DNA from: an uncultured archaeon
GTDB lineage: Archaea; Thermoproteota; EX4484-205; JAAOZP01
Reading direction: 5' to 3'
Assembly: GCA_938045545.1 (NCBI GenBank)
Contig: CALIBN010000012.1
Span: 78,368-142,367 of the forward strand
DNA length: 64,000 nucleotides
Shown here: piece after piece, positions 32,224 through 44,976 of the stretch
Layout of the letters: each line of letters opens with the position of its first letter
Position numbering within the stretch: position 1 is the first letter of the stretch
Made by a program: the position numbers and the translations under genes
The notes under the pieces: generated by a model
Told to the model about the DNA's origin: nothing
The model's database searches: none
The model's input: only the letters and a program-made list of their open reading frames with translations

Positions 32224-32243
32224 TCATCTTGAGCTTGAAAGCA

Positions 32244-32260
32244 CCGAAAATAAGTCTTTC
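32244..32260 (+). repeat. attL core CCGAAAATAAGTCTTTC
   Basis: Identical to 43090-43106. Confidence 0.93.
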
Positions 32261-32478
32261 TAAGAAGAATGGAGAAATCTCCCCGGCAACCCTCTTTTTT
32301 TCTCAACACCTCAGTCTAATTTCAAAAGAAGACCTCTAAGTCTTAGGTCTCTGAACACACTAATCAAGCACTCTTACAACAATGTTCGGGAAGGTAGGAA
32401 GGGCGACAGGAAAGGCTTCGAAAAATTGGCACATGTTGAAGTTTAAAGTGTTTTAACGATCTTCATGCCTAACAATTT

Positions 32479-34161
32479 CTATGTCTTCCTAAAGAACTTC
32501 CAAGGTTTCCATTTTCGGGGAGGTCCTTCCCATTCAACCATTTTCTTCCTCTTATTTGGCTTCTGCGACCTTTCTTTCCATTCGATATCTTTCTTCTCCT
32601 CATTCAGCTTTTGCGATTTCTTTAAGCACTCATATACGAGTGCCTGCTCAGTTGGTGCATACACATCGCAGCTTTGACAGTAAAATGGAATTTGATCCTC
32701 CTTCGTAGCTGGAACAGGTTTTTCCTTCACTTTACCTTCTCTTCTACTTCCTATTTCAAAGGTTTCGAATTCTCCTACTTTGACTTCTCCGCGTGCCAAG
32801 GGGACTTCTCCATAACCCTCAAGGTCTTTCTTTATCTCACTGGACCCTACGGGACTTTTTCCAATTTCAACTCGCTCCGCAACATTTTCATGCCTAGAGG
32901 CCTCTGTGAAATCGATAAGAACAGCATAAGGTTCGCTCCGTAGTTTGAGGCTGTCCTCAGCTGCTTTCTCATCCGGTTTCCTAAGCACCCTTCCACGGAT
33001 CTGGATGTAGCTCAGGGGGGACCTAACTGGTCTGGCAATTATCAATACCTCTAGGTTCTTATCGTCAAAACCCATTTTAGCCATGTCCACAGTAACGAGA
33101 ATTCCCTCTTTCTTTTTTCTAAATTCTGAAAGAACCTCCTCCGCTTCGTCAATATTATAGTGTGCTACAGAGACTAGGTTATTCCTGTGACAAAGATCTC
33201 TAATCTTGCTATCCAATTCCTTCTTTATCAAATCAGCCTCTCCCGTATTGGCTGCAACGACTAGGGTTTTAGGGATCCTCCTCTTAAGCGATTCTTCCCC
33301 AACCTCTTTCTTAAGGACTTCGATTATTTTCTCCGCATATTTCTCTGCCCTTTCATATATTGCGACCTGCCATTCATCTAATCTCCAAACCGGTTCTGAA
33401 AAACGATCTTTCTCTTCCAAGCGAATGCTATCTTTAACGACTTTTGTTATCGTCCGATATATCTTCAAACGCTCCATAAGGATGCCCATATCCATGGCCT
33501 TTCTAGTTGAGCAAGAATAGACGGGCTCTCCGAGGGCCTCCTTTGCCTCTTTAGTTGGCGTCGCGGACAATCCTAAGATGAATCTAATGTTCGCGATTTC
33601 TTGAAGAGTCTCGATTACTTTTCTGATTTCAGGACCCCAGTATGTGTGATGGACTTCGTCAAGAATTGCTGCGTATACTTCAGTGATCATGTCCTTAAAT
33701 TCAGAACCCTTCTCTGAGAATTGCCGGTTGAGTAGTTGTGGGGTAGTTGGAATCACCACGCTTATTATTCCTTCGTCTTTCAAAAGATATTGCAGATGTT
33801 TACCCTTAGTCTCCCACAACTCATTTGAGATAGGAGTATAAATCTGCATCTGTAAATCTTTTAGCTTTTTTAATAAAAGATCTCCCTCCTCTTTTGCTTG
33901 ATCTAGAAGTATTTCTAGTGGAGCCAGCCAGAGCACTTTATCACCTTTCCTCAAATCCTCTCTAAGGAAAAGGTAGAGGAGAAAAGTGAATGCGAGCCTA
34001 GTCTTTCCCGTGCCGGTGGGCATGGCGATAATTCCAGATAGTTTATCGTGTTCCTTCTTAAGCAATTCATCCAACCGCTTGAGAGCCTCTTTCTGAATGT
34101 CGTTTAATTCATGGCCAGTTATCTCCTTCACCAGCTCGTTAAGCTGCTCTGGAGACACCAC
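32479..34161 (-). CDS. SF2 DExH helicase, ResIII/HsdR motor-like, no evident nuclease domain
   Basis: MPTGTGKT, LDEVHH, SATP, GFDDK, YIQIRGRVLR; start re-called at GTG near 34161 below gaaaac-ttattt promoter. Confidence 0.85.
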   Translation of the reverse strand: MVSPEQLNELVKEITGHELNDIQKEALKRLDELLKKEHDKLSGIIAMPTGTGKTRLAFTFLLYLFLREDLRKGDKVLWLAPLEILLDQAKEEGDLLLKKLKDLQMQIYTPISNELWETKGKHLQYLLKDEGIISVVIPTTPQLLNRQFSEKGSEFKDMITEVYAAILDEVHHTYWGPEIRKVIETLQEIANIRFILGLSATPTKEAKEALGEPVYSCSTRKAMDMGILMERLKIYRTITKVVKDSIRLEEKDRFSEPVWRLDEWQVAIYERAEKYAEKIIEVLKKEVGEESLKRRIPKTLVVAANTGEADLIKKELDSKIRDLCHRNNLVSVAHYNIDEAEEVLSEFRKKKEGILVTVDMAKMGFDDKNLEVLIIARPVRSPLSYIQIRGRVLRKPDEKAAEDSLKLRSEPYAVLIDFTEASRHENVAERVEIGKSPVGSSEIKKDLEGYGEVPLARGEVKVGEFETFEIGSRREGKVKEKPVPATKEDQIPFYCQSCDVYAPTEQALVYECLKKSQKLNEEKKDIEWKERSQKPNKRKKMVEWEGPPRKWKPWKFFRKT

Positions 34162-34300
34162 ATTAGCCAAGACTCTGTCATACTGACTGGTGTTTCTCCA
34201 AAATAAGTTTTCCTTAAGGCCAGAGAAACGAGGGAAATAAACCCTTAGAGCATGATTTCCAAGATTTATAAGTAGTTGGAATATAGGAAGAGACAGCACT

Positions 34301-37300
34301 ATGCTTAGGGGAGTAATAAGAGAGGCTAAGGTTGAAGAGGAGCTTTTCAGGATATTTAAAAACGTTCTAGAGAAGAAAAATCGTGAAATAGAGGGTGTAT
34401 TTTTTCATGATTTGGAACCCCAATATCCGGTTGACTCAGGAGAGGCGGATCTGGTTCTTTTCACGGATAGGCCGAGGAAACCAATTCTTGTCATAGAGTG
34501 TAAGAGGAAGGATTTGAAGACCAGGAGGGAAATAAGAAGCATAGACCCAATGAGTCCAAAGGTCATCGATCAAGCTCTATTCTATGCCACGAAAATAGGT
34601 GCACCACTGTTTTCAACGACTAATGGAAGGGTTTTCACACTGTTCATTAAGCCTAAACCCGATGAGCCGTTCAGCATTGAAAGACATAGGCTTCTAATAA
34701 AAGAGATAGAGTTGAGGGAGGAAAGCATAGAAGAAATCCTAGGTCTTGTAGCGAAATGGAAAGCAGGAGTCCCGGTCACTAGGACTGCAATAGACTGGAC
34801 GTTCATAATTAGGCTGAGGAGCTTTGTAGAATGGCTTTCCGAACAGCTCCTTCCAGCCATAGAAAAAAAGGCTAAGCAGAAGGGCGAATTCGCGGCTAAA
34901 CTGAAGGAGCATGAGGATAAATTGGGAAAAATAAGCTCTGAAATATTTGCAAGAGAAGCCGCCTACTTACTGATGAACAAGATAGTTTTCTATAAGATTC
35001 TTGAAAGACATTATCCGCTGGAGGAGCTTAAGGGCATAGTTGCGTCAAATTCGGAAAGCTATATGAATGCACTTAAAGAATACTTCAATAAGGCTATAGA
35101 AGTAACTGATGACTTTGAACCGATATTCTCAACAGGCGTTTACGATTATGTTCCAATGCCGGATGAGGAATGGGTTCTTGAGGAGATAAACGCGTTCATC
35201 GAAGATATGGGAAAATACAGGCTTGAAGAAATCGGAAGCGATGTTGTCGGCTTCATCTATGAGAATCTAATTCCTCCGGCGGAAAGACATAGCTTAGGAC
35301 AATTCTACACTCCTCCTCCAATAGCGGAGCTCATAGTTAAATGGGCAGTAAGAAGCCCTGAGGACAAGATTTTAGATCCAGCTGTTGGAAGCGGAACTTT
35401 CCTGATTAAAGCCTATCAAAGGTTGAAGGAGCTTAAGAAAGAACCTTCTCACGAAGAAATTTTAAAGCAGATTTACGCCCTGGACATTAATCCTTTCCCA
35501 GCCCACTTGACTGCGATGAATCTTGCGATGAGAGATGTGAAACATCCCGTGAGTGAGATGAATATTTTGGTTCGAGACTTCTTTCAACTGATGTATGGTC
35601 AGAAGTACTTTGTTGCTTATTCGGTGAAAACTCCAAGAGGAGAAAGAGAGAGAAAAATATCAATACCTTTATTTGATGCTATAGTGGCGAATCCCCCCTA
35701 TACTAGATGGACCGAAATCCCTGAGAAAACAAGAATGCTCATTGGAGAAACAATAGGAGAAACTCTAAAGAAATATAACTTGACAGCTAGGGTGAGACAG
35801 GGAATAGAACCTGGAATCTATATGCACTTCATAATGTGGGGATTAAACTTTCTGAGAGAGGGAGGTAGACTTGGAATGATAATCTCTGATAGCTGGCTCC
35901 AAACAGATTACGGGGTTGACTTCGGAAAATTCTTACTGGATAATTTTAAGGTTAAGGCTTTGATTGACATTTCTTCAAGGGTCTTTCCCGTCCCGCTGAT
36001 AGGCACATGTATAATACTTCTAGAAAAATGCAGCAGAAAAGAGGAAAGGGAGGAAAACAAAGCTGTTTTCATGTATCTGAACATAGAGAAAGAAGGAAGC
36101 CTCCAGGTTGAGGAAATTCTAGACGCTATTGAAAGACCTGAGCATTATGAAGAAAAATACATGGTGAAAGTTGTTAAGCAGAGCGAAATAAGCAGAGACC
36201 AAAAATGGATAAACATAATATTCGACACCGAAGGCATCCTAGAAAAGCTTGGAGAAAAAACTACTTCCATGAAAGAATACTTTGAACTAAGTAGAGGAAA
36301 CAGCCTATGGTCAATATGGTCCATGAAACATGGAAGGAGACCTGATGTTGGTGCAAAAGACTTCTTTTATCTTAACGAGGGCAAAGTTAAACAATGGGGT
36401 TTAGAGGATTATGCCTATCCCGCTTTAACGAGCTCAAGGTATGCGGCAAACTTCACATTCACTAAAAAAGATTGGGAAGAGCTTAGAGAAAGAGGGGCAG
36501 ATTGCTACTTATTCATTTGTCATAAGAAGAGGAATGAGTTACCAAGTAATGCTAGGGATTACATAAAGTGGGGAGAAACAGAGTGCAGAACTCAAATTAG
36601 AGGAACTAGGGGAGGAGGAAAGATCTGCAGTGAAGCACTTGCCTGTCAAGAAAGGGAAAAACTAGCAAGACGGCCTAAAGGTGAAAGGCTCTTCTACGGA
36701 TGGTATGACCTTGGAGGGGTAGAAAAAGCATCAATAATGGCAGTACGTCAATCAAGATATAAAACAAGGTTCATTTTATGTCAATACCCAATTGTTACTT
36801 ATGATGCGATAATAACCTTTATTCCAAAGGTAAGGCTTTCAGAATCACAACTTAAAGCTTTGTTAGCCTACTTGAACTCAAGCGTTGTTCAACTGTATAT
36901 AGAGTCTACGGGAAGGACAACAGGTGCAGTAGGTCCCATAGGATTAGAAGTGAAACATGCCCAAGAGATTCCGGTCATAGATGTTAATTCTTTAGATAAA
37001 AAGGACCTTGAAAGGCTTTCAAACCTGTTTGAGAAGCTAGAAAAAAAGGCTAGAGAGCTCGGAGGGGCAGACAAGCAGGAGAATGTAGAAAACCTCTGGG
37101 ATAGCGTAGTAGCAGAAATAGATGAAGAAGTCGCGAGGATACTGCAGTTTCCGAAGAGATTAGCAAGGGATTCGAGAGTTTTAGCCAAGGCGATGATGGG
37201 GAGGAGGCTCTCGAGGACAGTAGAAGTCGCACCGGAGGCAATAGGCGGTGAAGAGATAAAGAGAATGAGGATTCCTAGGAAAAGCGGGAAAACTGCGGAA

Positions 37301-37336
37301 AATAAAGAACTTTCGTCTCTCAAAGAATGGTTTTAG
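34301..37336 (+). CDS. Type IIG-like restriction-modification fusion: HsdR_N nuclease, N6-adenine MTase and TRD
   Basis: EADLVL..VIECK..QALFYA; GQFYTP, LDPAVGSGTFL, NPPY; AYLNS in TRD. Confidence 0.9.
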   Translation: MLRGVIREAKVEEELFRIFKNVLEKKNREIEGVFFHDLEPQYPVDSGEADLVLFTDRPRKPILVIECKRKDLKTRREIRSIDPMSPKVIDQALFYATKIGAPLFSTTNGRVFTLFIKPKPDEPFSIERHRLLIKEIELREESIEEILGLVAKWKAGVPVTRTAIDWTFIIRLRSFVEWLSEQLLPAIEKKAKQKGEFAAKLKEHEDKLGKISSEIFAREAAYLLMNKIVFYKILERHYPLEELKGIVASNSESYMNALKEYFNKAIEVTDDFEPIFSTGVYDYVPMPDEEWVLEEINAFIEDMGKYRLEEIGSDVVGFIYENLIPPAERHSLGQFYTPPPIAELIVKWAVRSPEDKILDPAVGSGTFLIKAYQRLKELKKEPSHEEILKQIYALDINPFPAHLTAMNLAMRDVKHPVSEMNILVRDFFQLMYGQKYFVAYSVKTPRGERERKISIPLFDAIVANPPYTRWTEIPEKTRMLIGETIGETLKKYNLTARVRQGIEPGIYMHFIMWGLNFLREGGRLGMIISDSWLQTDYGVDFGKFLLDNFKVKALIDISSRVFPVPLIGTCIILLEKCSRKEEREENKAVFMYLNIEKEGSLQVEEILDAIERPEHYEEKYMVKVVKQSEISRDQKWINIIFDTEGILEKLGEKTTSMKEYFELSRGNSLWSIWSMKHGRRPDVGAKDFFYLNEGKVKQWGLEDYAYPALTSSRYAANFTFTKKDWEELRERGADCYLFICHKKRNELPSNARDYIKWGETECRTQIRGTRGGGKICSEALACQEREKLARRPKGERLFYGWYDLGGVEKASIMAVRQSRYKTRFILCQYPIVTYDAIITFIPKVRLSESQLKALLAYLNSSVVQLYIESTGRTTGAVGPIGLEVKHAQEIPVIDVNSLDKKDLERLSNLFEKLEKKARELGGADKQENVENLWDSVVAEIDEEVARILQFPKRLARDSRVLAKAMMGRRLSRTVEVAPEAIGGEEIKRMRIPRKSGKTAENKELSSLKEWF

Positions 37337-37348
37337 CACATGCTAAAA
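37331..37348. terminator. 8 bp inverted repeat over the RM gene stop
   Basis: ttttagca-ca-tgctaaaa. Confidence 0.4.
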
Positions 37349-37682
37349 AGCAGGAGTTAATTATAATGGCCTGAACCATCCCCTGCTAATGATGCATATA
37401 TACCGTTGGCATTCCATGATTGACCCATAAAGTCCAGTCTGACTGCTGATGTCCTTAGAGTAATCAAATGAAAGAAGGAAAGGAGGAACCGGAGAGACCT
37501 AGAGGGGGAAATGGTCCTGACCCAAAAAGCTTTAGCCGGGATGTGCTTGGCCTTAGGGGATTCTAGATGGCCCATGAGAATAGGCATGCATAGTAAGCCT
37601 GTATGAGGGGCCTTCCATGGCTAACTATTGGCTTTGTGGGAAGCCCACCGTTATAGCATGCTCATTCCTTCTTCACGTTCTC

Positions 37683-37740
37683 GAAACGTCGAAAACGATG
37701 GAGAACGAGACTAAAACGTTGCAGAACGATGAAAACGTTA
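37683..37740 (+). repeat. Six RAACG units with about 10 bp periodicity
   Basis: AACG at 37685, 37694, 37704, 37715, 37725, 37734. Confidence 0.75.
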
Positions 37741-37775
37741 AAAATACTTAGCGTCTCTCTGTTGGAGAAGTGTCG

Positions 37776-38483
37776 ATGAAACACCAAATAGTCCAATTCG
37801 TCCAGGAGTTCCATAAGCAAAATGGCAGGGCTCCGAGCGTCAATGAGATTCTTAAACACTTTAAGAATAATGGGTTATGCTCCTCCACCTTTTACCAATT
37901 TTTCCCAAAAGGCTTAAAAGAACTTTGTAGCCTCGCCGGTATTCCAGTTCCGGTTGAACGCATTCGAAAAACAGCGAAAGCCACAGCAGCCCTCAGAGAG
38001 GGTAGAAAGGGGGATGTGCATCGAGAAACAGCCTTGAGCCGCCTAATTCTGACGGAGGAGCAGACAAAGAGGCTCCTCGGCCTAAGCCACTTGGAGGGAG
38101 GAAGGGACCCGCTTCTGATAATGGACCAGTTGCTGGATTTGGACACTGTGTTGAGGAAAGAGTTTAAACTTACACTTGAGGATATCGCTCGCGTAGCTGT
38201 TTTCCTAAAGTACGCTGTGTCCATCGGCTGGAGGATCAAGCAGGATCCAGACCTGCTCGATTGCCTGACGAGAGCCTGGAATCTAGGGCTGCTTGGGCTC
38301 GAGCCCAGGGCCGTGCAGTACCTCGTCGAAGTCCTAGAGGATGCTCAGGCAAGGGGATGGAAGCCGAATGAGTTCGCTAATTATGTTACCAAGTTCTATA
38401 ATGGAATTCTGGCTTACATCATGTACGAGAAGGGTTTAATATGCTTCGAAGAATTCAGGAGGAGGGTCGAAACTCATGTCTAA
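37776..38483 (+). CDS. Element protein with N-terminal HTH-like domain
   Basis: FHKQNGRAPSVNEI..SSTFYQFFPKGLKELCSLAGI. Confidence 0.7.
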   Translation: MKHQIVQFVQEFHKQNGRAPSVNEILKHFKNNGLCSSTFYQFFPKGLKELCSLAGIPVPVERIRKTAKATAALREGRKGDVHRETALSRLILTEEQTKRLLGLSHLEGGRDPLLIMDQLLDLDTVLRKEFKLTLEDIARVAVFLKYAVSIGWRIKQDPDLLDCLTRAWNLGLLGLEPRAVQYLVEVLEDAQARGWKPNEFANYVTKFYNGILAYIMYEKGLICFEEFRRRVETHV

Positions 38484-39126
38484 GCCTGACGGCCTAGCTG
38501 AGTTCCTACTCAAAAGAGCTGAGCAGGTTGAGGCAGAGAGGAGGGCTGAGGCTGAAAGACAAGCAGCGATAATGGCACATAAGATATGGCTTCACCACCA
38601 GGCTGCAAACAGGGCTAGGAAGGAGCTTGAGGAATACCGGAAGCTCCTTAACGATTCCAGGGGCCTCATATCCTCACGAGATATCAAGGCCAATGAGATT
38701 CTCATAGAAGAGCTCCAGGGCAGGCTAATGTCCGATCCGGAGGGGGCTGAGGAGGAAGCGAGGATCTATCGAAAGTTCCTGGAGGCTAACGTCAAGAGAA
38801 TCAGGAGGGCTGGGGAGAATAAGAGGGGGAGGGCACTCGAACGTAAAAGTGATGAGGCGATGCTCCATTCTCTCAGGTACGTAGCGGGGCTGAACGAACT
38901 ATCGAAGAGCATTGATGAGCTATGTAACAAATGGCTTTCAATAAGCAGGGACAATTCTCAGGCGGGGAGGCTTTATGTCCTGTTGCTCAGACATATGGGG
39001 TTCAACGTCAACAGCCTTTCAGAAGCGAGGAGTGTCTTAAAGAAAGAGCTAAGGGAAGCGTTTGAGAAGAGGCTTACGGAGAAGATAAAAGCCTTCCATG
39101 AGTCCGGAGGTTTTAGCACCTGCTAA
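38476..39126 (+). CDS. Coiled-coil hypothetical protein of the element
   Basis: Overlaps previous stop; GGAGG SD; helical charged composition. Confidence 0.7.
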   Translation: MSKPDGLAEFLLKRAEQVEAERRAEAERQAAIMAHKIWLHHQAANRARKELEEYRKLLNDSRGLISSRDIKANEILIEELQGRLMSDPEGAEEEARIYRKFLEANVKRIRRAGENKRGRALERKSDEAMLHSLRYVAGLNELSKSIDELCNKWLSISRDNSQAGRLYVLLLRHMGFNVNSLSEARSVLKKELREAFEKRLTEKIKAFHESGGFSTC

Positions 39127-39501
39127 ATCTGAGAAGACATTTATCAGGTTGAGTTGCTCTAGCTAAAGTTCTCCTAAGCCGAGAAGAAGGGTTATTTTCC
39201 AGGTTAGAATGCCTTTTCCCTTAGGCCTGTTCTTCCATGTTAAAATCCATATCTTGCTCGATTTTTCGCATGAATCATGAAATGACTTTTGCAGTTAAAA
39301 CATGTCATATGTTTTTCTATATAAATTTTTCTGTTGATAAGATTAAATATTTATCTTTAGAGTTAATCAAAGTTAACTTTAAAAATTTAGTGTATACACT
39401 AAATTTAGAAGAAACCAAATAGTTAGCTTTAAATATCGGTGATAAAAAAGTACGACTAATATGAAAAAACTTAAAAGTACGCTTACATGCAAAGTATCAT
39501 A

Positions 39502-39726
39502 ATGAGTAAAGTGAAGGTAGTTAAGGTTTCAAGTAACGGTACAACAAGCCTAGTTTACATTCCGAAGAAATTTGCGAAAGAATTGGAAATTAAAAAAGGT
39601 AATTACATCAAGATGATTTTAGCAGGTGGGCAAATCATTATTCAGCCACTCGACCTCGGCTATGAATGCGGGCCCGGTCGAGTGGGCAGGCCCTCCAGCA
39701 GGAGTGAACCTGCAAATGAAGGATGA
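39502..39726 (+). CDS. AbrB/MazE-type DNA-binding protein
   Basis: SLVYIPKKFAKELEIKKGNYI..QIIIQP; start re-called at ATG 39502, about 30 bp below aaaaac-ttaaaa. Confidence 0.85.
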   Translation: MSKVKVVKVSSNGTTSLVYIPKKFAKELEIKKGNYIKMILAGGQIIIQPLDLGYECGPGRVGRPSSRSEPANEG

Positions 39727-41710
39727 GGAGGATGTACTACTTAAACATTTCTCCAGCAATGTTAAGAAGGCCCAAGAGTTCGTGGTGAGAGAAATAGAAA
39801 AGGAAGAAAGCAAAGAAAACAAGAAGACGATTAAAACTATCTTTGAAGATCTGAACGATTTCATCGTCCAAGAGATTTGGAGCAATGGGCCAAAGCTTCT
39901 AATCTGGGATAAGAGGGATGGGAAGGTTAATGTTTGTGAAGAATTCGAATGGGGAAATATCGTTTACAAGCCTCATAACATACCGATCGGGAGGAAAGGC
40001 AGACCACTTGTTACTTTGGCGTCAAAACCCATACCTTATAGAAACGAGAAAGACCTGCTTGAAAGGATCAGAGAGTTCATTGATCGCTATTCGGATTTAG
40101 AGCCATGGGCTTTAGAATTTACATCGAGGTTCGTCATGCATAGCTGGGTTTATGACATGGGAGATTATGCAATCCAATTATGGATAAAGGGGCTCACGGG
40201 CTCAGGTAAAACGAGGTTTCTTAAGCTTCTCGCCCTGCTCTGCTATAATGCCCTTTATGTCGGTGGTAATGCAAGTTTCTCGGCCTATAAAAGGCTAATC
40301 TCGAAATATAGGGGCACGTTGTTGATCAACGAGTTCGAGCTAAAGGATGAAGATGACTCCAACGAGGTCATAATTTGGCTCAACAATGGATTCGAAAAGG
40401 ATAATGAATTTCCATTAAGCAGAAAAAACCAACCTGAGAAACAAGATTTTTTCGACCCTTTTGGTCCTAAGGTGATAGCATCCAGAAGCCTGATCTCAAA
40501 CCCCGCCACTCTTTCGAGGATGGTCGTTATTGAGATGCATAAGACATCGAGAAAAGACATTCCTATCAAATTGCCTGCTGAAGCCTATCGTGAAGCTGAA
40601 GAGATTAGAAACATGCTCCTATTCTTCAGGCTTAAACACTACAAGAGTGATTATGCGTTACGCTCTGATCTCGATGAGAGGCTTAGAAACGATGAGGTTA
40701 TCGATGGACGCTTTAAGCAACAGGCTTACCCCATGCTCGAGCTCTATGAGATAGCAGGTCTAGATGTCAACGAGGTTTTCAACTTCTATAGGAAGCTCAC
40801 CCTGGACTTTAAGAAGAGGCAGGCGGAGTCAACGCCTGAAGGCGTGATCTTCCATGCGATCATGGAGTTATGCAGCCTCCAAGATTGTAACAACCCCGAT
40901 TTCTCAGGCCACATCGTTAAGGAGGAGGTAAAGGATGAAACCGGCCAGGAGAAAAAGGTCTATGGATTGGTGGGCATAACAACCAGGCTTTTGGAAGACA
41001 AAACTGGCTTCTCGAAGTATACCATAACAAAGGCCTTAAGCCACATAGGGATGGTTCAAGAGAGGAGGAAGACGAAGGTTATAATCTATGACCTCAGAGG
41101 AGATTTTACCGAACGAACTAGATATTTAAGACTCTGGAAGTTTAAGAGTGAAAGAACTTGGAAGGAGGCCCTCGACCAATACTATGTGGGGGATGTGTCC
41201 CTAGCGAGTGGCACCACCGACACCTTTGACACCTTGCCCATTCCGGAGATTCTAAAAAGTAGGGACTTTAACTCTGAAAAGATGCCAGAAAATGTCCTTT
41301 TAAATAGCACAAACAATGTGGAAAATGCCAATAAAAAGTCATCTTTCTTCGAGAGCCCTGACCTGGAGAAAGATGTCCAGGTGGCGAAGGTGCCAGAGGT
41401 GCCACTTGATGGAGACACATATGTTCCCGAGCAGGAGGGCAAGGCTGAACTCCAGAGTTTAAGTCCCTCTTTTGAGAATCTAATTATCAGGTCTGGAAGC
41501 TACATCCGAAAATCTCTTAAAGATTTCTCCAAGTACCATTACGCTGAGCTGGTTTGTCAGATTTGTAACTCTATCGACGAAGTCTTCGCCAGAAAAGTTA
41601 GCGATACCCAAATAGCTTACCTGTGCGATGAGTGTGTGAAGAAGGCCTCTGACCTGAGGATCAGCCTCGAGGAACTTCTCGAAAAGAGTCAAAGAGGCGA
41701 AGCGGCCTAA
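39716..41710 (+). CDS. P-loop NTPase, putative replication helicase/Rep, with C-terminal zinc finger
   Basis: Walker A GLTGSGKT, Walker B LLINE, FGPKVIA..ATLSR; CQIC..CDEC; GGAGTGA SD before ATG 39716. Confidence 0.75.
   Translation: MKDEEDVLLKHFSSNVKKAQEFVVREIEKEESKENKKTIKTIFEDLNDFIVQEIWSNGPKLLIWDKRDGKVNVCEEFEWGNIVYKPHNIPIGRKGRPLVTLASKPIPYRNEKDLLERIREFIDRYSDLEPWALEFTSRFVMHSWVYDMGDYAIQLWIKGLTGSGKTRFLKLLALLCYNALYVGGNASFSAYKRLISKYRGTLLINEFELKDEDDSNEVIIWLNNGFEKDNEFPLSRKNQPEKQDFFDPFGPKVIASRSLISNPATLSRMVVIEMHKTSRKDIPIKLPAEAYREAEEIRNMLLFFRLKHYKSDYALRSDLDERLRNDEVIDGRFKQQAYPMLELYEIAGLDVNEVFNFYRKLTLDFKKRQAESTPEGVIFHAIMELCSLQDCNNPDFSGHIVKEEVKDETGQEKKVYGLVGITTRLLEDKTGFSKYTITKALSHIGMVQERRKTKVIIYDLRGDFTERTRYLRLWKFKSERTWKEALDQYYVGDVSLASGTTDTFDTLPIPEILKSRDFNSEKMPENVLLNSTNNVENANKKSSFFESPDLEKDVQVAKVPEVPLDGDTYVPEQEGKAELQSLSPSFENLIIRSGSYIRKSLKDFSKYHYAELVCQICNSIDEVFARKVSDTQIAYLCDECVKKASDLRISLEELLEKSQRGEAA
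41193..41420. repeat. Inverted 9 bp iteron arrays around an AT-rich spacer (putative intragenic origin)
   Basis: agtggcacc accgacacc tttgacacc (41207-41233) vs ggtggcgaa ggtgccaga ggtgccact (41380-41406), plus symmetric atgtgtc/gacacat. Confidence 0.75.
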
Positions 41711-41713
41711 GCC

Positions 41714-43063
41714 TTGATCTTAAGCTGTCCCTATTGCGGTTCTTCGAAACTATTTAAAGCAGGTTTTAGAAAAACGAAGAGTGGCGAGAAGATCCAACGC
41801 TACTTATGTAGAAGCTGCTTTCGAAGGTTTGGCCTTCCTGGAAACCCTGAGGTAAAGCTCAACGTCTCCAGGGGGCTCGTCGAAGACTCTAAAGTTGTAA
41901 AGCAGCCTCCTGATGCTCCCTCTGTCGTAGGGCCTGCCCTCGAGCCAAGCCCTGAGGACTCTACGCTCCCTCTCGCTAAAGATCCTGGTGTGCATAGTAC
42001 ACGAATCTCGAGACAAGGGTTTTATAGTTTGCGTCTCGAAGCTAAGGACAGCAGGAGGGCAGGGAGTGAAAAGCATCCTCCTGCAGAAGGTGAAATGGAT
42101 AACATGAGCAACCCTGAAGGGGTTGTGAAGAGCATCCTGGTCCAGCGACCGGGGGCTGGGCAGGATGACAAGAAAGAGGAGCTCGAGGGCAAGCTCATAA
42201 GCTTCGCATGGTGGCTTAAGAAACAGGGACTGCGTGAGTCCACGGTAAAGCAGTATTGCAAAATACTCCGCCAGCTTGTTAAGAGCAGTGTCAACTTAGA
42301 TGATCCTGAAGCGGTAAAGGAGGCTTTAGCAAGGAATGGTAGAAGCGAAAGGTGGAAGGCTCTGATAGTGCATGCCTACTCCGCATACTTAAAGATGAAG
42401 GGAAAGCACTGGGATCCCCCACGGTTCGATGTGGTTAGAAAGATTCCCTTCATACCCTTGGAGAGCGAGATCGATGCACTGATAGCCGGTTGCGGACCTA
42501 AGACTGCAGCACTGCTCCAATTGCTTAAGGAAACCGGCATGAGGATAGGCGAGGCGTTGAGGCTGACCTGGAAGGATGTGGACCTCGAGAGAAGAGTCAT
42601 AATCTTTAACGAGCCGGAGAAAAACAGCAATCCGAGAATCTTTAAAATCAGCCCCAGGCTTATCAGCATGTTGAGCATGCTTCCGAGAAACGGAGTGAGG
42701 GTGTTTCCAACGAGCTATCACAGCGTTAAAAACAACTTTAAGCATTCTCGGAGACGCTTGGCGGAGAGACTTAATAATCCCAGACTTCTAAACATTAGTT
42801 TCCACACCTTCAGGCACTGGAAGGCCACCATGGAGTACCACAAAACAAAGGATTTGTTGCATGTCAAGGAGCTGCTCGGACATAAGAATGTAGACAACAC
42901 GATGGTTTACATTCAGATCGAAAGGGCTCTTTTCAACGAGACGGATGCCGAGTTCACAGTTAGGATCGCTAAGACTCCTGACGAGATTAAAGAGCTTCTG
43001 GAAGCTGGTTTTGAGTATGTTTGCGAGAAGGATGGCTTCCTCTTCTTCAGGAGGAGGAAATGA
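41714..43063 (+). CDS. int: Tyrosine recombinase/integrase with N-terminal zinc ribbon
   Basis: CPYCGS..QRYLCRSC; catalytic ETGMR, HTFRH, LLGH, TMVY. Confidence 0.93.
   Translation: MILSCPYCGSSKLFKAGFRKTKSGEKIQRYLCRSCFRRFGLPGNPEVKLNVSRGLVEDSKVVKQPPDAPSVVGPALEPSPEDSTLPLAKDPGVHSTRISRQGFYSLRLEAKDSRRAGSEKHPPAEGEMDNMSNPEGVVKSILVQRPGAGQDDKKEELEGKLISFAWWLKKQGLRESTVKQYCKILRQLVKSSVNLDDPEAVKEALARNGRSERWKALIVHAYSAYLKMKGKHWDPPRFDVVRKIPFIPLESEIDALIAGCGPKTAALLQLLKETGMRIGEALRLTWKDVDLERRVIIFNEPEKNSNPRIFKISPRLISMLSMLPRNGVRVFPTSYHSVKNNFKHSRRRLAERLNNPRLLNISFHTFRHWKATMEYHKTKDLLHVKELLGHKNVDNTMVYIQIERALFNETDAEFTVRIAKTPDEIKELLEAGFEYVCEKDGFLFFRRRK
41804..41995 (-). CDS. Small basic protein nested antisense inside the integrase ORF (candidate regulator/excisionase)
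   Basis: MHTRIFSERERRVLRAWLEG..; own BRE/TATA gcaaac-tataaaa 25-31 bp upstream; sense frame here is a Pro-rich linker. Confidence 0.65.
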   Translation of the reverse strand: MHTRIFSERERRVLRAWLEGRPYDRGSIRRLLYNFRVFDEPPGDVELYLRVSRKAKPSKAAST

Positions 43064-44976
43064 GAATGTCCGGAAATAGTCTAAAAACTCCGAAAATAAG
43101 TCTTTCCAGCATCGACTACCGGGTGCTCTCCAAGGAGCTTTCTAAAGAGCTGCAGGGAGCATGGGTTGACAACGTGTACAAACATCCTGATTACGGATAC
43201 TATCTGATGGTTTTCAGAAGCAGCGGGATTGTCAAGAAGCTAGTCATAATACCTGGGGAATCATTGTTTCTAACTCGCCGAGATTATCCTGTCCCGAGTA
43301 CTCCCGAGGGCAGCGTATTGCAGCTGAGGAGAATAGTCTGCAACCTTAGGGTTGAGAGCGTGGAGCAGCATGACTTTGACAGGATTATAATCATGAGTCT
43401 TTCCAGAGGAGGGTTTAAAACCAGGCTTATCGTGGAGGGATTGAAACGAGGCGTGATCGCCCTTGTATCTGAAGACTGGCGTATCCTCTTCACTTCTCAA
43501 AGAATCGAGATGGTAGCCAGATCGCTCAGAGAGGGGGAGAAATACGTTTTCCCACCGTCAAACATTTTCGACCCCATGTGCATCCCGGGAAGCCTGGAAG
43601 CCCTGCAGAAGTATTCCTCGGAAAAGCTTGGCAGGCTGATAGCTGGTAGGCTTGGCTTCGGGTCTAAAACAATGAGTGAGATATGCAGAAGGATAGGGCT
43701 TGATCCTGACTCAAGCGTTGAAGGAAAGATCCCTATCGTAATCGAGACCATACGTATGCTCATCAAGGAGGCTGAAGAGTCTCCGAAGCCGCGGATCTAC
43801 TATCGCGAGGGACGACCGGTCGATGTGTCTGCGATAAGGCTTCTCTCCTTGGAGAACATGGAGCAGAAGGAGGTTGAAACCGTTTCAGAGGCTTTGGATG
43901 AATACTATGCTACACTCGGGTTTGAGGCTGCTGGTGATGAAAAATCATCATTAGAGCTGAGTAGGCTGGTTAGAATAAGAGAGAACCTTGCTTCCGAAGT
44001 AGAGGCGTTGAGGAATAAGGCTAGGATGATCATGGAGAACCTTGCGGTCTTTCAGGCAGTTTTAGACGCTGTAAGGAATAAAGTGGAAGCGCCAGCTGGT
44101 TTCAAGATTCTTGAAACCGACTACGGGAGGAGAACTGTTAAAGTATTGTTCAACGATTCAGAGTTGAAGCTTAGCTTGGATTCCTCGGCGGCGTCAAACG
44201 CCTCCAGCATGTTTGAGGAGGCTAAGAAAATCGAGAAGCATCTTTCCGAGATTGATGGCAAGATTCTTCTGCTTAAGGAGAAGGCTTCTGCCGAAAGCAG
44301 GAGAATGGTTCCTGGGAAGAGGGTTGAAAGAAAATGGTTTGAAAAGTTCCGATGGAACGTATCGGTTAACGGAAACTTGATTCTGGCCGGTAGAGACGCT
44401 GGGACGAACGAGCTTCTCGTCAAGAAGTATGTTTCAGATAGAAGCGTGGTGTTTCACGCGGACTTCATAGGAGCACCGTTCGTAACCATACATAATGTTG
44501 AAAACCCTTCAGAGGAGGAGCTTGAGGAGGCTGCGCTCATGGCGGCATGCTACACTGCAAGAGCTTGGGAGAACAAGTATGCTTCCCTAGACGTCTACTG
44601 GGTCAGGGGAAGCCAAGTCGGCAAGCAGGCCCCCCCAGGCCAGTACCTACCCAAGGGAGCGTTCATGATAAGGGGGGAGAAGAACTTCATTAGAAATGTT
44701 GAGCTTAAGCTTTGGATCGGAGTTTCAGATAATGGCGAAGTGGCTTACGGGAGTCTAAGCAAGGTAAAGGCAAGGTGTAGAAAGTATGCAGTAATCCTTC
44801 CTGGAGACAAGGATAAGAATCATGAAGCTGCTTTACTCGCAAGGAAGTTTCTTAAAGACATGTCTCTTCCCCGTGAAGCATTGCCAGAGCTGCTTGAGAG
44901 GATTCGAAGCATTATTCCAGGGCGACACTGTGAAGCTCGCTACATGCCGCCCATTCCTCCGGGGCAAGGGAAATAG
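43060..44976 (+). CDS. rqcH: Ribosome quality-control protein RqcH/NFACT (NEMF-like)
   Basis: FDRII, KWFEKFRW, GRDAGTNELLVKKY, FHAD..GAP, YLPKGAFMIRGEKN; start ATG 43060 or 43066 supplied by the element. Confidence 0.9.
   Translation: MRMSGNSLKTPKISLSSIDYRVLSKELSKELQGAWVDNVYKHPDYGYYLMVFRSSGIVKKLVIIPGESLFLTRRDYPVPSTPEGSVLQLRRIVCNLRVESVEQHDFDRIIIMSLSRGGFKTRLIVEGLKRGVIALVSEDWRILFTSQRIEMVARSLREGEKYVFPPSNIFDPMCIPGSLEALQKYSSEKLGRLIAGRLGFGSKTMSEICRRIGLDPDSSVEGKIPIVIETIRMLIKEAEESPKPRIYYREGRPVDVSAIRLLSLENMEQKEVETVSEALDEYYATLGFEAAGDEKSSLELSRLVRIRENLASEVEALRNKARMIMENLAVFQAVLDAVRNKVEAPAGFKILETDYGRRTVKVLFNDSELKLSLDSSAASNASSMFEEAKKIEKHLSEIDGKILLLKEKASAESRRMVPGKRVERKWFEKFRWNVSVNGNLILAGRDAGTNELLVKKYVSDRSVVFHADFIGAPFVTIHNVENPSEEELEEAALMAACYTARAWENKYASLDVYWVRGSQVGKQAPPGQYLPKGAFMIRGEKNFIRNVELKLWIGVSDNGEVAYGSLSKVKARCRKYAVILPGDKDKNHEAALLARKFLKDMSLPREALPELLERIRSIIPGRHCEARYMPPIPPGQGK
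43090..43106 (+). repeat. attR core CCGAAAATAAGTCTTTC
   Basis: Identical to 32244-32260; 26 bp after integrase stop. Confidence 0.93.

Follow-up and report, generated by a model that had tools for sequence, protein, structure and literature searches.

We analysed a stretch of 64,000 nucleotides (nt) of DNA (hereafter the window) from an uncultured archaeon of the Thermoproteota (GenBank assembly GCA_938045545.1, contig CALIBN010000012.1, positions 78,368 to 142,367), in which the gene of a tyrosine recombinase (integrase, int; 41714..43063 of the window, plus strand) carries, in the part that encodes its interdomain linker, a second gene of 63 amino acids (aa) on the opposite strand (41804..41995). 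Comparison with related loci indicates that this antisense open reading frame (ORF) is a conserved protein-coding gene and that both frames are preserved by selection, and the locus appears to be a rare, well-supported case of two proteins encoded by the same DNA in opposite directions. The best explanation, which we regard as probable, is that a regulator gene with its own TATA box, likely active in both directions, sits antisense in the integrase linker and forms with it a switch for the supply of recombinase.

A conserved gene antisense to the integrase linker

The nested gene is read on the minus strand (coding sequence 41995-41807, stop codon 41806-41804), codon for codon antisense to integrase codons 31-94; its ATG corresponds to CAT on the plus strand (41993-41995), and its stop codon to TTA (41804-41806). 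It sits within a longer open antisense frame (41804-42076 as listed; 41807-42295 from stop to stop). The positions given in an initial annotation of this DNA (for the ORFs, the TATA box, the repeats, the AGGTGA motif and the ATG) all agree with the sequence, and its description of the 63-aa ORF as protein-like is borne out by a coding signature, by stand-alone homologs, by nested copies in 19 loci and by the size of the protein family (284 clusters at 50% identity, E ≤ 1e-3, nearly all of 55-65 aa).

Among 8000 scored candidates, 3320 relatives of the integrase were found (E ≤ 1e-3). Loci were collected from species-representative genomes (80; among them metagenome-assembled genomes, MAGs, labelled Bathyarchaeia/Bathyarchaeota, Brockarchaeota and Nitrososphaerota), from metagenomes (80), and from further same-genus and more distant genomes; their retrieval was independent of an open linker frame, and duplicate records were collapsed. 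A hidden Markov model (HMM) run over the six-frame ORFs of at least 25 aa of every locus found a nested copy in 19 distinct, diverged loci (the window included), the nested genes of which share 22% codon identity, and the arrangement is also present on one 43-kb IMG/VR contig. Two loci with long linkers (L091 and L112) that are Gly/Pro-rich and lack the small gene were excluded from this count. The start Met of the small gene is conserved and aligned with position 41995, with an in-frame stop codon at most 16 codons upstream in 12 of 12 homologs. In five loci with short linkers (L025, L045, L066, L097 and L099), a homolog stands alone on the plus strand (i.e., in the orientation of int), 49-292 nt upstream of int, and these stand-alone homologs were recovered with an HMM of the nested copies alone (E 6e-9 to 2e-6).

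Selection statistics were computed over the 49 ungapped domain columns of the nested gene. Nucleotide entropy at the first, second and third antisense codon positions was 1.02, 0.82 and 1.44, respectively, and in 6538 differing codon pairs of the nested domain the proportion of synonymous changes was 31.2% in the antisense frame versus 7.6% in the sense frame. In the cores of these integrases the pattern was the mirror image (45.5% synonymous in the sense frame versus 7.1% in the antisense frame). Within the overlap, the antisense translations had a mean pairwise amino-acid identity of 0.46, compared to 0.28 for those of the sense frame.

The sense frame is open and codon-aligned across the nested gene in all 19 loci, and it runs to the end of the core in 17 of them (in L024 and L150 it is broken later, inside the core). 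The nested genes use TTA or CTA in none of their 138 Leu codons and TCA in none of their 85 Ser codons (0/223 together), these being the codons whose complements are stop codons in the integrase frame. By comparison, TTA/CTA make up 159 of 599 Leu codons (27%) and TCA 44 of 257 Ser codons (17%) in the integrase cores at these loci. The stand-alone homologs, which have no overlapping gene, contain TTA, CTA or TCA in 16 of 385 codons, with at least one in each of the five genes. A long integrase frame that includes the zinc ribbon, as the initial annotation assumed, is thus kept open by selection. Within the overlap both frames are constrained, the small-protein domain dominating in the linker and the ribbon at the far end, where the sense gene fixes the last residues of the small protein (...AAST), their codons being the complement of the second CxxC of the ribbon. 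Of the features expected of a functional antisense pair, a signature of purifying selection in the embedded frame and the maintenance of the host frame were found.

The integrase and its relatives

The long integrase (449 aa, TTG start) comprises a Zn-ribbon, a tyrosine recombinase core and, between them, a linker of predicted disorder. The core matches Phage_integrase (PF00589; aa 252-402, E 3.9e-19, 69.5 bits compared to a curated cut-off of 27.1), and the protein matches the PHROGs integrase family phrog_1 (E 1.3e-32). R277, H364, R367, H390 and Y399 are invariant in an alignment of 15 integrase sequences (A1) and correspond to the pattern R...HxxR...H/W...Y, which we take to be the catalytic residues of tyrosine recombinases. 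The ribbon (CPYC...CRSC, aa 5-35; 41726..41818, plus strand), whose 3' part shares its DNA with the last codons and the stop of the antisense gene, is conserved across the integrase relatives; its match to Zn_ribbon_InsA (PF03811; aa 4-35, E 3.6e-4, 20.7 bits) lies below the curated cut-off of 26.1, and PF03811 is annotated in 4 of 120 listed homologs. The linker between ribbon and core (about 110 aa) is Pro-rich, as had been noted before (11 Pro in 85 residues versus 4.3% in the core), and in the AlphaFold2 model it has no secondary structure (aa 43-151, predicted local distance difference test, pLDDT, below 50), the core being folded and aa 1-42 reaching a pLDDT of 74-77.

In 108 distinct loci, out of 149 with a core ORF of more than 250 aa, the ribbon lies in the same open frame as the core, and the source genome itself holds four integrase copies with ribbon and core in a single open frame. 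The distance from the ribbon to a PF[IV]P motif has a bimodal distribution, most loci having about 130-170 residues and a group of 15 having 190-220; that of the window is 209. In a quick maximum-likelihood tree of 103 cores, many forks of which lack support, the nested arrangement appeared in six or more places, interspersed with short-linker and stand-alone types (short-linker sisters lack the module of small gene plus promoter), and it should therefore be old or mobile rather than a recent oddity, although the tree is too weak for counting its origins. The closest full-length homolog (P0001) is, by reading of the alignment, about 90% identical over the ribbon-linker part and 71% overall, which would fit either an extra constraint from dual coding or an exchange of the N-terminal module. 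Isolated pieces that match only the last 30-100 residues of the integrase occur in the source genome (G000:C46:47-349), and several relatives have them as well; such pieces may be left over from elements that decayed or recombined.

Promoter, flanking repeats and signals in the sense direction

A TATA box with a B recognition element (BRE)-like sequence is found at 42020..42033, within the integrase ORF. The TATA box (ttttatagttt, 42020-42030) can be read in both directions, as CTATAAAA at 42027-42020 on the minus strand and as TTTTATAG on the plus strand; upstream of it on the minus strand lies the purine-rich GCAAAC (42032-42027), the last base of which is shared with the TATA box. The centre of the box is about 28 nt from the ATG of the small gene, and its start at -31 fits a leaderless transcript. 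A TATA-like box was present in all 19 loci, starting at -31 in 10 (window included) and at -40 in 9, and in these loci it is preceded by a purine-rich BRE-like run and followed by a conserved pyrimidine-rich run. By this conserved spacing the small gene has its own archaeal BRE/TATA at leaderless distance, in agreement with what had been proposed from the window.

The TATA box is bracketed by a perfect 7-bp inverted repeat, TCGAGAC/GTCTCGA (42008..42039; arms 42008-42014 and 42033-42039, spacer 18 nt), a candidate operator. In shuffled 75-mers, a 7-bp inverted repeat occurred in 4.5%, and one bracketing the TATA position in 1.2%. In 10 of the 19 loci, the box is flanked by direct repeats at 34-nt spacing (at least 8 of 10 matches), compared to a shuffle null of 0.9% per locus; a shift of 34 was the best of 44 tested shifts in 8 loci, and the sequence of the repeats varies from locus to locus. 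The stand-alone small genes have a palindrome, AATTCC-N6-GGAATT, 20-30 nt upstream (L045:2600-2690; also L025, L066, L097 and L099), which is likely an operator. A gap of 4-20 nt separates the small gene from the start of int in three of these loci (L045, L066 and L099), which indicates an operon. The proposal of an operator at the nested promoter is supported indirectly for the family by the direct repeats, and for the window it comes down to the 7-bp inverted repeat. We also considered that this inverted repeat could be an invertible promoter switch, but its arms are too short and the relatives have direct repeats.

In the sense direction, the TATA box is followed after about 31 nt by an RNA hairpin (GCAGGAGG...CCUCCUGC; 42051..42084, plus strand; -17.7 kcal/mol, z -2.4), which ends 3 nt before a Shine-Dalgarno (SD)-like AGGTGA (42088-42093). 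Two in-frame ATG codons follow, at 42095 (M128) and at 42104 (M131; 10 nt past the 3' end of AGGTGA), so that the segment 42088..42106 holds a candidate start of a short integrase. A hairpin precedes the ATG in all five loci of the window's clade (the window, L002, L008, L009 and L013; -17.7 to -23.5 kcal/mol, z -0.8 to -5.2), with compensatory changes among them; this clade also takes in close homologs known as proteins. Across the family, whether or not a small gene is nested, there is a conserved stem, 5'-GYCRAGU-AUG-CGNN...NNCG-AAAA-AYUYGRC-3', with an A/T-rich box about 30 nt before it. In an alignment of 37 sequences (A4), 94.3% of the cells of this stem are paired versus 20-39% with slid partners, 47 cells are compensatory versus 13.5 in shuffles, and the covariation score is 0.375 versus 0.183 (none of 500 shuffles was as high for either value); about two dozen G-U cells favour an RNA of the plus strand. 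No Rfam family matched the window region, and none covered the hairpin in four relatives.

The stem (L104:3322-3384, L056:1646-1708 and 35 other loci; 42051-42084 in the window) has an outer helix of 7 bp, a 3x4 internal loop (AUG versus AAAA) and an inner helix, and its synonymous sites are fixed as CG-AAAAA(C/T)-T(T/C)G. Three other interpretations of this conserved motif were dismissed: the internal loop is 3x4 and not staggered, which does not suit a bulge-helix-bulge splice motif; the heptamer of a -1 frameshift site misfits the reading frame; and the TTG of the K-N-L codon as a universal internal start is set aside, the variation at this codon being explained by RNA pairing.

M131 (42104) aligns with a conserved Met of relatives, and an ATG is found at or next to it in 12 of the 15 sequences of alignment A1 (it is absent in P0011, P0014 and P0028). 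This conserved ATG supports indirectly the in-frame internal start suggested in the initial annotation; the SD-like motif that was to serve it is not generally conserved. A paralog on another contig of the same genome (L003) has no small gene and carries TTTATAAA directly after the ribbon, followed by about 30 nt, a hairpin, GGTGA, 10 nt and an ATG, with spacings as in the window; the TATA box has thus been retained where there is no small gene for it to serve. Together with the family-wide A/T box about 30 nt before a covarying stem, this supports indirectly the earlier proposal that the TATA box works in both directions.

The strongest of the alternatives is that the TATA box is one-way and serves only the small gene, that the internal ATG is no start and that a single long integrase is made, which we regard as possible but clearly less likely than a switch. 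It accounts for the distance from the TATA box to the ATG of the small gene, which is fixed in two classes in all 19 loci, for the poor conservation of the SD-like motif, and for the TTG or TCG at the codon aligned with M131, which RNA pairing explains and which is therefore not evidence for a start codon. It does not account for the A/T box about 30 nt before the conserved hairpin in L003 and in many short-linker relatives that have no small gene, for the GGTGA-N10-ATG kept in L003, or for the Met conserved in 12 of 15 sequences.

The small protein and the proposed switch

The consensus of the small protein reads M-R-[ST]-Y-I-F-T-x-[RK]-E-R-x-[ILV]-[IL]-x-x-[FW]-L-x-G ... R-[IV]-[RK]-x-F-x-x-L-x-x-D-V-[ED]-L-Y-L, and the AlphaFold2 model has three helices (residues 8-19, 25-37 and 40-55; mean pLDDT 79). 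Its database relatives, where named, are hypothetical proteins without a Pfam domain, and searches with the 23 members of an alignment of the family (A3) found no family named by Pfam, PHROGs or NCBIfam. The LuxR/GerE helix-turn-helix (HTH; PF00196) was matched by 2 of the 23 members (best E 0.0078), and the small protein of the window covers only positions 2-18 of the 57 of this profile (its N-terminal part), so that a whole HTH was not recognised. Structure searches gave nothing at E ≤ 0.001 (Foldseek against the PDB), a best Z of only 3.7 (VIA-align wide fold search) and no usable match (ESM Atlas), and a PDB sequence search with the A3 members gave only chance-level matches to S2. A ribbon-helix-helix fold was rejected, as the N-terminal RSYIFT run lacks a clean alternation of polar and hydrophobic residues. 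The prediction of a homodimer scored 0.18, compared to a mark of 0.42. The stand-alone forms end in a basic PPGRPPK tail; one member (P0217) is fused to an ArsR-type winged helix-turn-helix (wHTH) and has a PRGRP tail, and several others have C-terminal extensions of 60-100 residues without a known domain.

In the switch that we favour, the integrase would have the small protein as an accessory factor that binds DNA, and this factor would most likely repress its own gene through the repeats on either side of its TATA box; this role is preferred because repeats or palindromes occur at its own promoter in both arrangements and because relatives have a basic tail or a fused wHTH. Transcription of the small gene would run head-on to that of the long integrase, coming from the upstream operon of the AbrB-like protein and a 694-aa ORF, and its RNA would be antisense to the 5' end of int, and the expression of the small protein and of the long integrase should therefore oppose each other. 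The same TATA box would probably fire in the sense direction too, with a transcript that starts near the conserved hairpin, encodes a core-only integrase beginning at ATG 42104 (or 42095) and continues into the downstream gene rqcH. In this way three products might be obtained from one stretch of DNA, and the locus would act as a switch for the supply of recombinase.

A more far-reaching version of this reading, which we put forward tentatively and do not expect to hold in all its parts, sees the linker as a compact three-output switch within a translated ORF, in which an operator-flanked TATA box fires both ways and the balance of long integrase, short integrase and small protein decides between integration and excision. 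Leftward transcription would yield a small regulator or directionality factor, rightward transcription a hairpin-capped mRNA for the core-only integrase, and read-through from the replication operon the Zn-ribbon integrase; the disordered linker might have served as an evolutionary 'parking place' for an overprinted partner gene and its promoter.

Several observations count against the switch, besides the poor support of the tree and the two loci (L024 and L150) with a broken core frame. The small protein belongs to an uncharacterised family with no match to Pfam, PHROGs or NCBIfam or to a solved fold, its proposed binding to DNA is suggested only by context (the flanking repeats, the PPGRPPK tail and the wHTH fusion), and the fusion in P0217 could equally mean that the small-protein domain mediates protein contacts. 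At the 34-nt spacing the window has 4 of 10 matches, leaving it with the 7-bp inverted repeat as weak evidence of an operator. The orientation of an archaeal TATA box cannot be read from its sequence alone. In a motif scan, no SD-like motif was found before the conserved ATG in L009, L013 and L008. Across the family, most loci have TTG where M131 aligns, and about a quarter have TCG, which makes this codon an unreliable start outside the window's clade; a short isoform that starts at this codon therefore cannot be universal.

The main rival to a repressor is a recombination directionality factor (RDF), i.e., an excisionase-like protein that acts with the integrase on the attachment (att) sites rather than on transcription, its divergent co-expression with the short integrase serving excision. 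We consider this role unlikely on balance, if still a serious candidate. The small gene is always tied to int, either nested in it or directly upstream in the order of xis-int modules, the basic tails (PPGRPPK in the stand-alone forms, PRGRP in one fusion) presumably resemble minor-groove hooks, and the role is vacant in that no archaeal RDF family was matched. On the other hand, a gap of 4-20 nt to int in three of the five stand-alone loci means that such an operon would always supply the factor together with the integrase, a poor fit for an inhibitor of integration, and the palindromes and repeats are found at the small gene's own promoter and not at the att repeats. The small protein also matches no excisionase family: in the Pfam, PHROGs, NCBIfam and PDB-sequence lists of the 23 A3 members there was no family named excisionase or RDF, which does not exclude the role.

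Gene models and chance

On this contig the gene caller split the locus into an integrase of 322 aa that starts at 42095 (P0002) and an antisense protein of 63 aa (P0315), and many integrase relatives are annotated at about 320 aa as well. Taken literally, these gene models describe two divergent genes and leave the Zn-ribbon-linker frame untranslated or as a relic. We regard this as improbable: none of the 223 Leu and Ser codons of the nested genes stops the sense frame, although the stand-alone homologs use such codons freely; the cysteines of the ribbon are conserved and in frame with the core in the 108 loci mentioned above; and short-linker relatives that have no nested gene still carry the ribbon fused to the core.

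As the antisense frame is codon-aligned, it can be closed only by a sense TTA, CTA or TCA, which amount to 3.47 per 100 codons in the integrase cores, and an open run of 63 codons is therefore expected about one time in nine. Judged from a single sequence, the case against chance would be weak, and it is in the comparison with relatives that the features appear to exceed chance. The suggestion that the antisense ORF is no gene, its open frame following from codon usage and the conserved residues of the sense linker, could appeal to this expectation and to a peptide that matches no known family, but it is highly improbable and looks already contradicted by the codon-position entropy and the pattern of synonymous changes, both of which indicate antisense coding, by stand-alone homologs where no integrase overlaps, and by the conserved start Met and promoter.

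The integrated element and its target gene

The integrase locus forms the right end of an integrated element of 10.85 kb (32261-43083), which is bounded by a direct repeat of 23 nt (17 nt exact), with the left copy (attL core) at 32238..32260 and the right copy (attR core) at 43084..43106, both on the plus strand; the latter lies within the 5' end of rqcH, 20 nt past the stop codon of the integrase. In all seven same-genus genomes examined the empty site is contiguous, the matches to the two flanks (left of 32260 and right of 43084) overlapping by 16-23 nt, which shows that the segment has been inserted into the 5' end of rqcH (NFACT). The element replaces this 5' end and the upstream region, supplying a new start of rqcH, and the native upstream region is now 10.8 kb away. 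Of the earlier proposal that a promoter inside the element also drives rqcH, the displacement of the native upstream region is confirmed by the empty sites, and the dependence of rqcH on transcription from inside the element is supported indirectly.

The 3' end of the integrase abuts a tRNA gene in L104 (L104:4367-4439), and a partial match to archaeal RNase P RNA is found at this place in L056 (L056:2667-2854); members of the family therefore use different targets directly downstream of int. No tRNA genes were found in the window.

The cargo of the element comprises a ResIII/DEAD helicase (32479-34299, minus strand), an Eco57I-like N6 DNA methylase of 1011 aa (34301-37336), a DsrC-like protein, an AbrB/MazE-like protein and an ORF of 694 aa (39626-41710, plus strand; named rep in the initial annotation). 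The helicase and the methylase (32479-37336) look like a restriction-modification or defence module. The 694-aa ORF has no Pfam or PHROGs match and ends in CxxC...CxxC; the integrase TTG lies 3 nt past its stop codon, which suggests translational coupling.

Comparison with known systems

The reality of antisense overlapping genes in prokaryotes is contested, and the locus offers a comparative test case with an internal control (19 nested and 5 stand-alone copies), the two sets diverging in codon usage in just the way expected under dual coding. As a general principle, a disordered linker could host another gene and its promoter while being translated. For the annotation of archaeal mobile elements in MAGs with the labels Bathyarchaeia, Brockarchaeota or Nitrososphaerota, it matters that gene callers break such loci up into a short integrase and a hypothetical protein, so that the Zn-ribbon goes missing. 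A candidate regulator or directionality factor, and possibly a control by two isoforms, would be gained for a large integrase family (the 3320 relatives), and if the far-reaching version of the switch is true, no directionality or regulatory factor of an archaeal integrase would have been described before the small protein.

To our knowledge, the published bacterial cases of antisense overlap are mostly young, species-restricted and disputed. The arrangement described here appears to be old and family-wide (19 loci dispersed over the integrase tree, their nested genes having 22% codon identity), its place is a linker predicted to be disordered, a stand-alone form of the gene provides a natural control, and the two genes are proposed to be functional partners. 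Two long antisense overlapping genes have been reported in Pseudomonas aeruginosa (PMC8850804) and the subject has been reviewed ('Are Antisense Proteins in Prokaryotes Functional?'; PMC7457138); the present locus resembles such genes in that one ORF lies wholly within a gene of the opposite strand and purifying selection is the argument for its reality. In the portions available of the literature searched (subscription journals being outside its coverage), neither an integrase gene with a second gene nested on its opposite strand nor the Zn-ribbon integrase family was found to be described.

In xis-int and cox-int modules of temperate phages, the gene of a small basic protein is tightly coupled to a tyrosine integrase, and the stand-alone relatives of the small gene are likewise directly upstream of int and co-oriented with it; the small gene of the window differs in being antisense inside int, and the sequence and fold searches gave no match of its product to excisionase families. 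Integrases of the archaeal pNOB8 type stay intact on integration, whereas those of the SSV type split their own gene. In the window int is intact when integrated and abuts the att repeat, which lies 20 nt downstream of its stop codon and not inside the gene, so that the SSV type does not apply; the likeness to the pNOB8 type is one of layout, and the locus differs from it in its target (the 5' end of rqcH, compared to a tRNA gene or a fragment of RNase P RNA in relatives) and in the N-terminal Zn-ribbon and long linker.

Small-protein repressors of archaea bind repeats at or next to the TATA box and the transcription start site, e.g., the F55 repressor of SSV1. The repeats on both sides of the BRE/TATA occupy the usual positions for such repressors; unlike in SSV1, the promoter and the sites are here inside a translated ORF, and the protein that would bind them is proposed. 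The two forms of the integrase that we propose recall DDE transposases, in that the long and the short form would differ by an N-terminal InsA-like Zn-ribbon and the short form would start at an internal in-frame codon with its own promoter; the enzyme is here a tyrosine recombinase, its short form is so far a proposal, and the match to Zn_ribbon_InsA is below the Pfam cut-off. Antisense overlapping genes and accessory genes of integrases are thus each known, and what is new here is their combination, its placement together with a promoter in a translated, disordered linker, and the stand-alone control.

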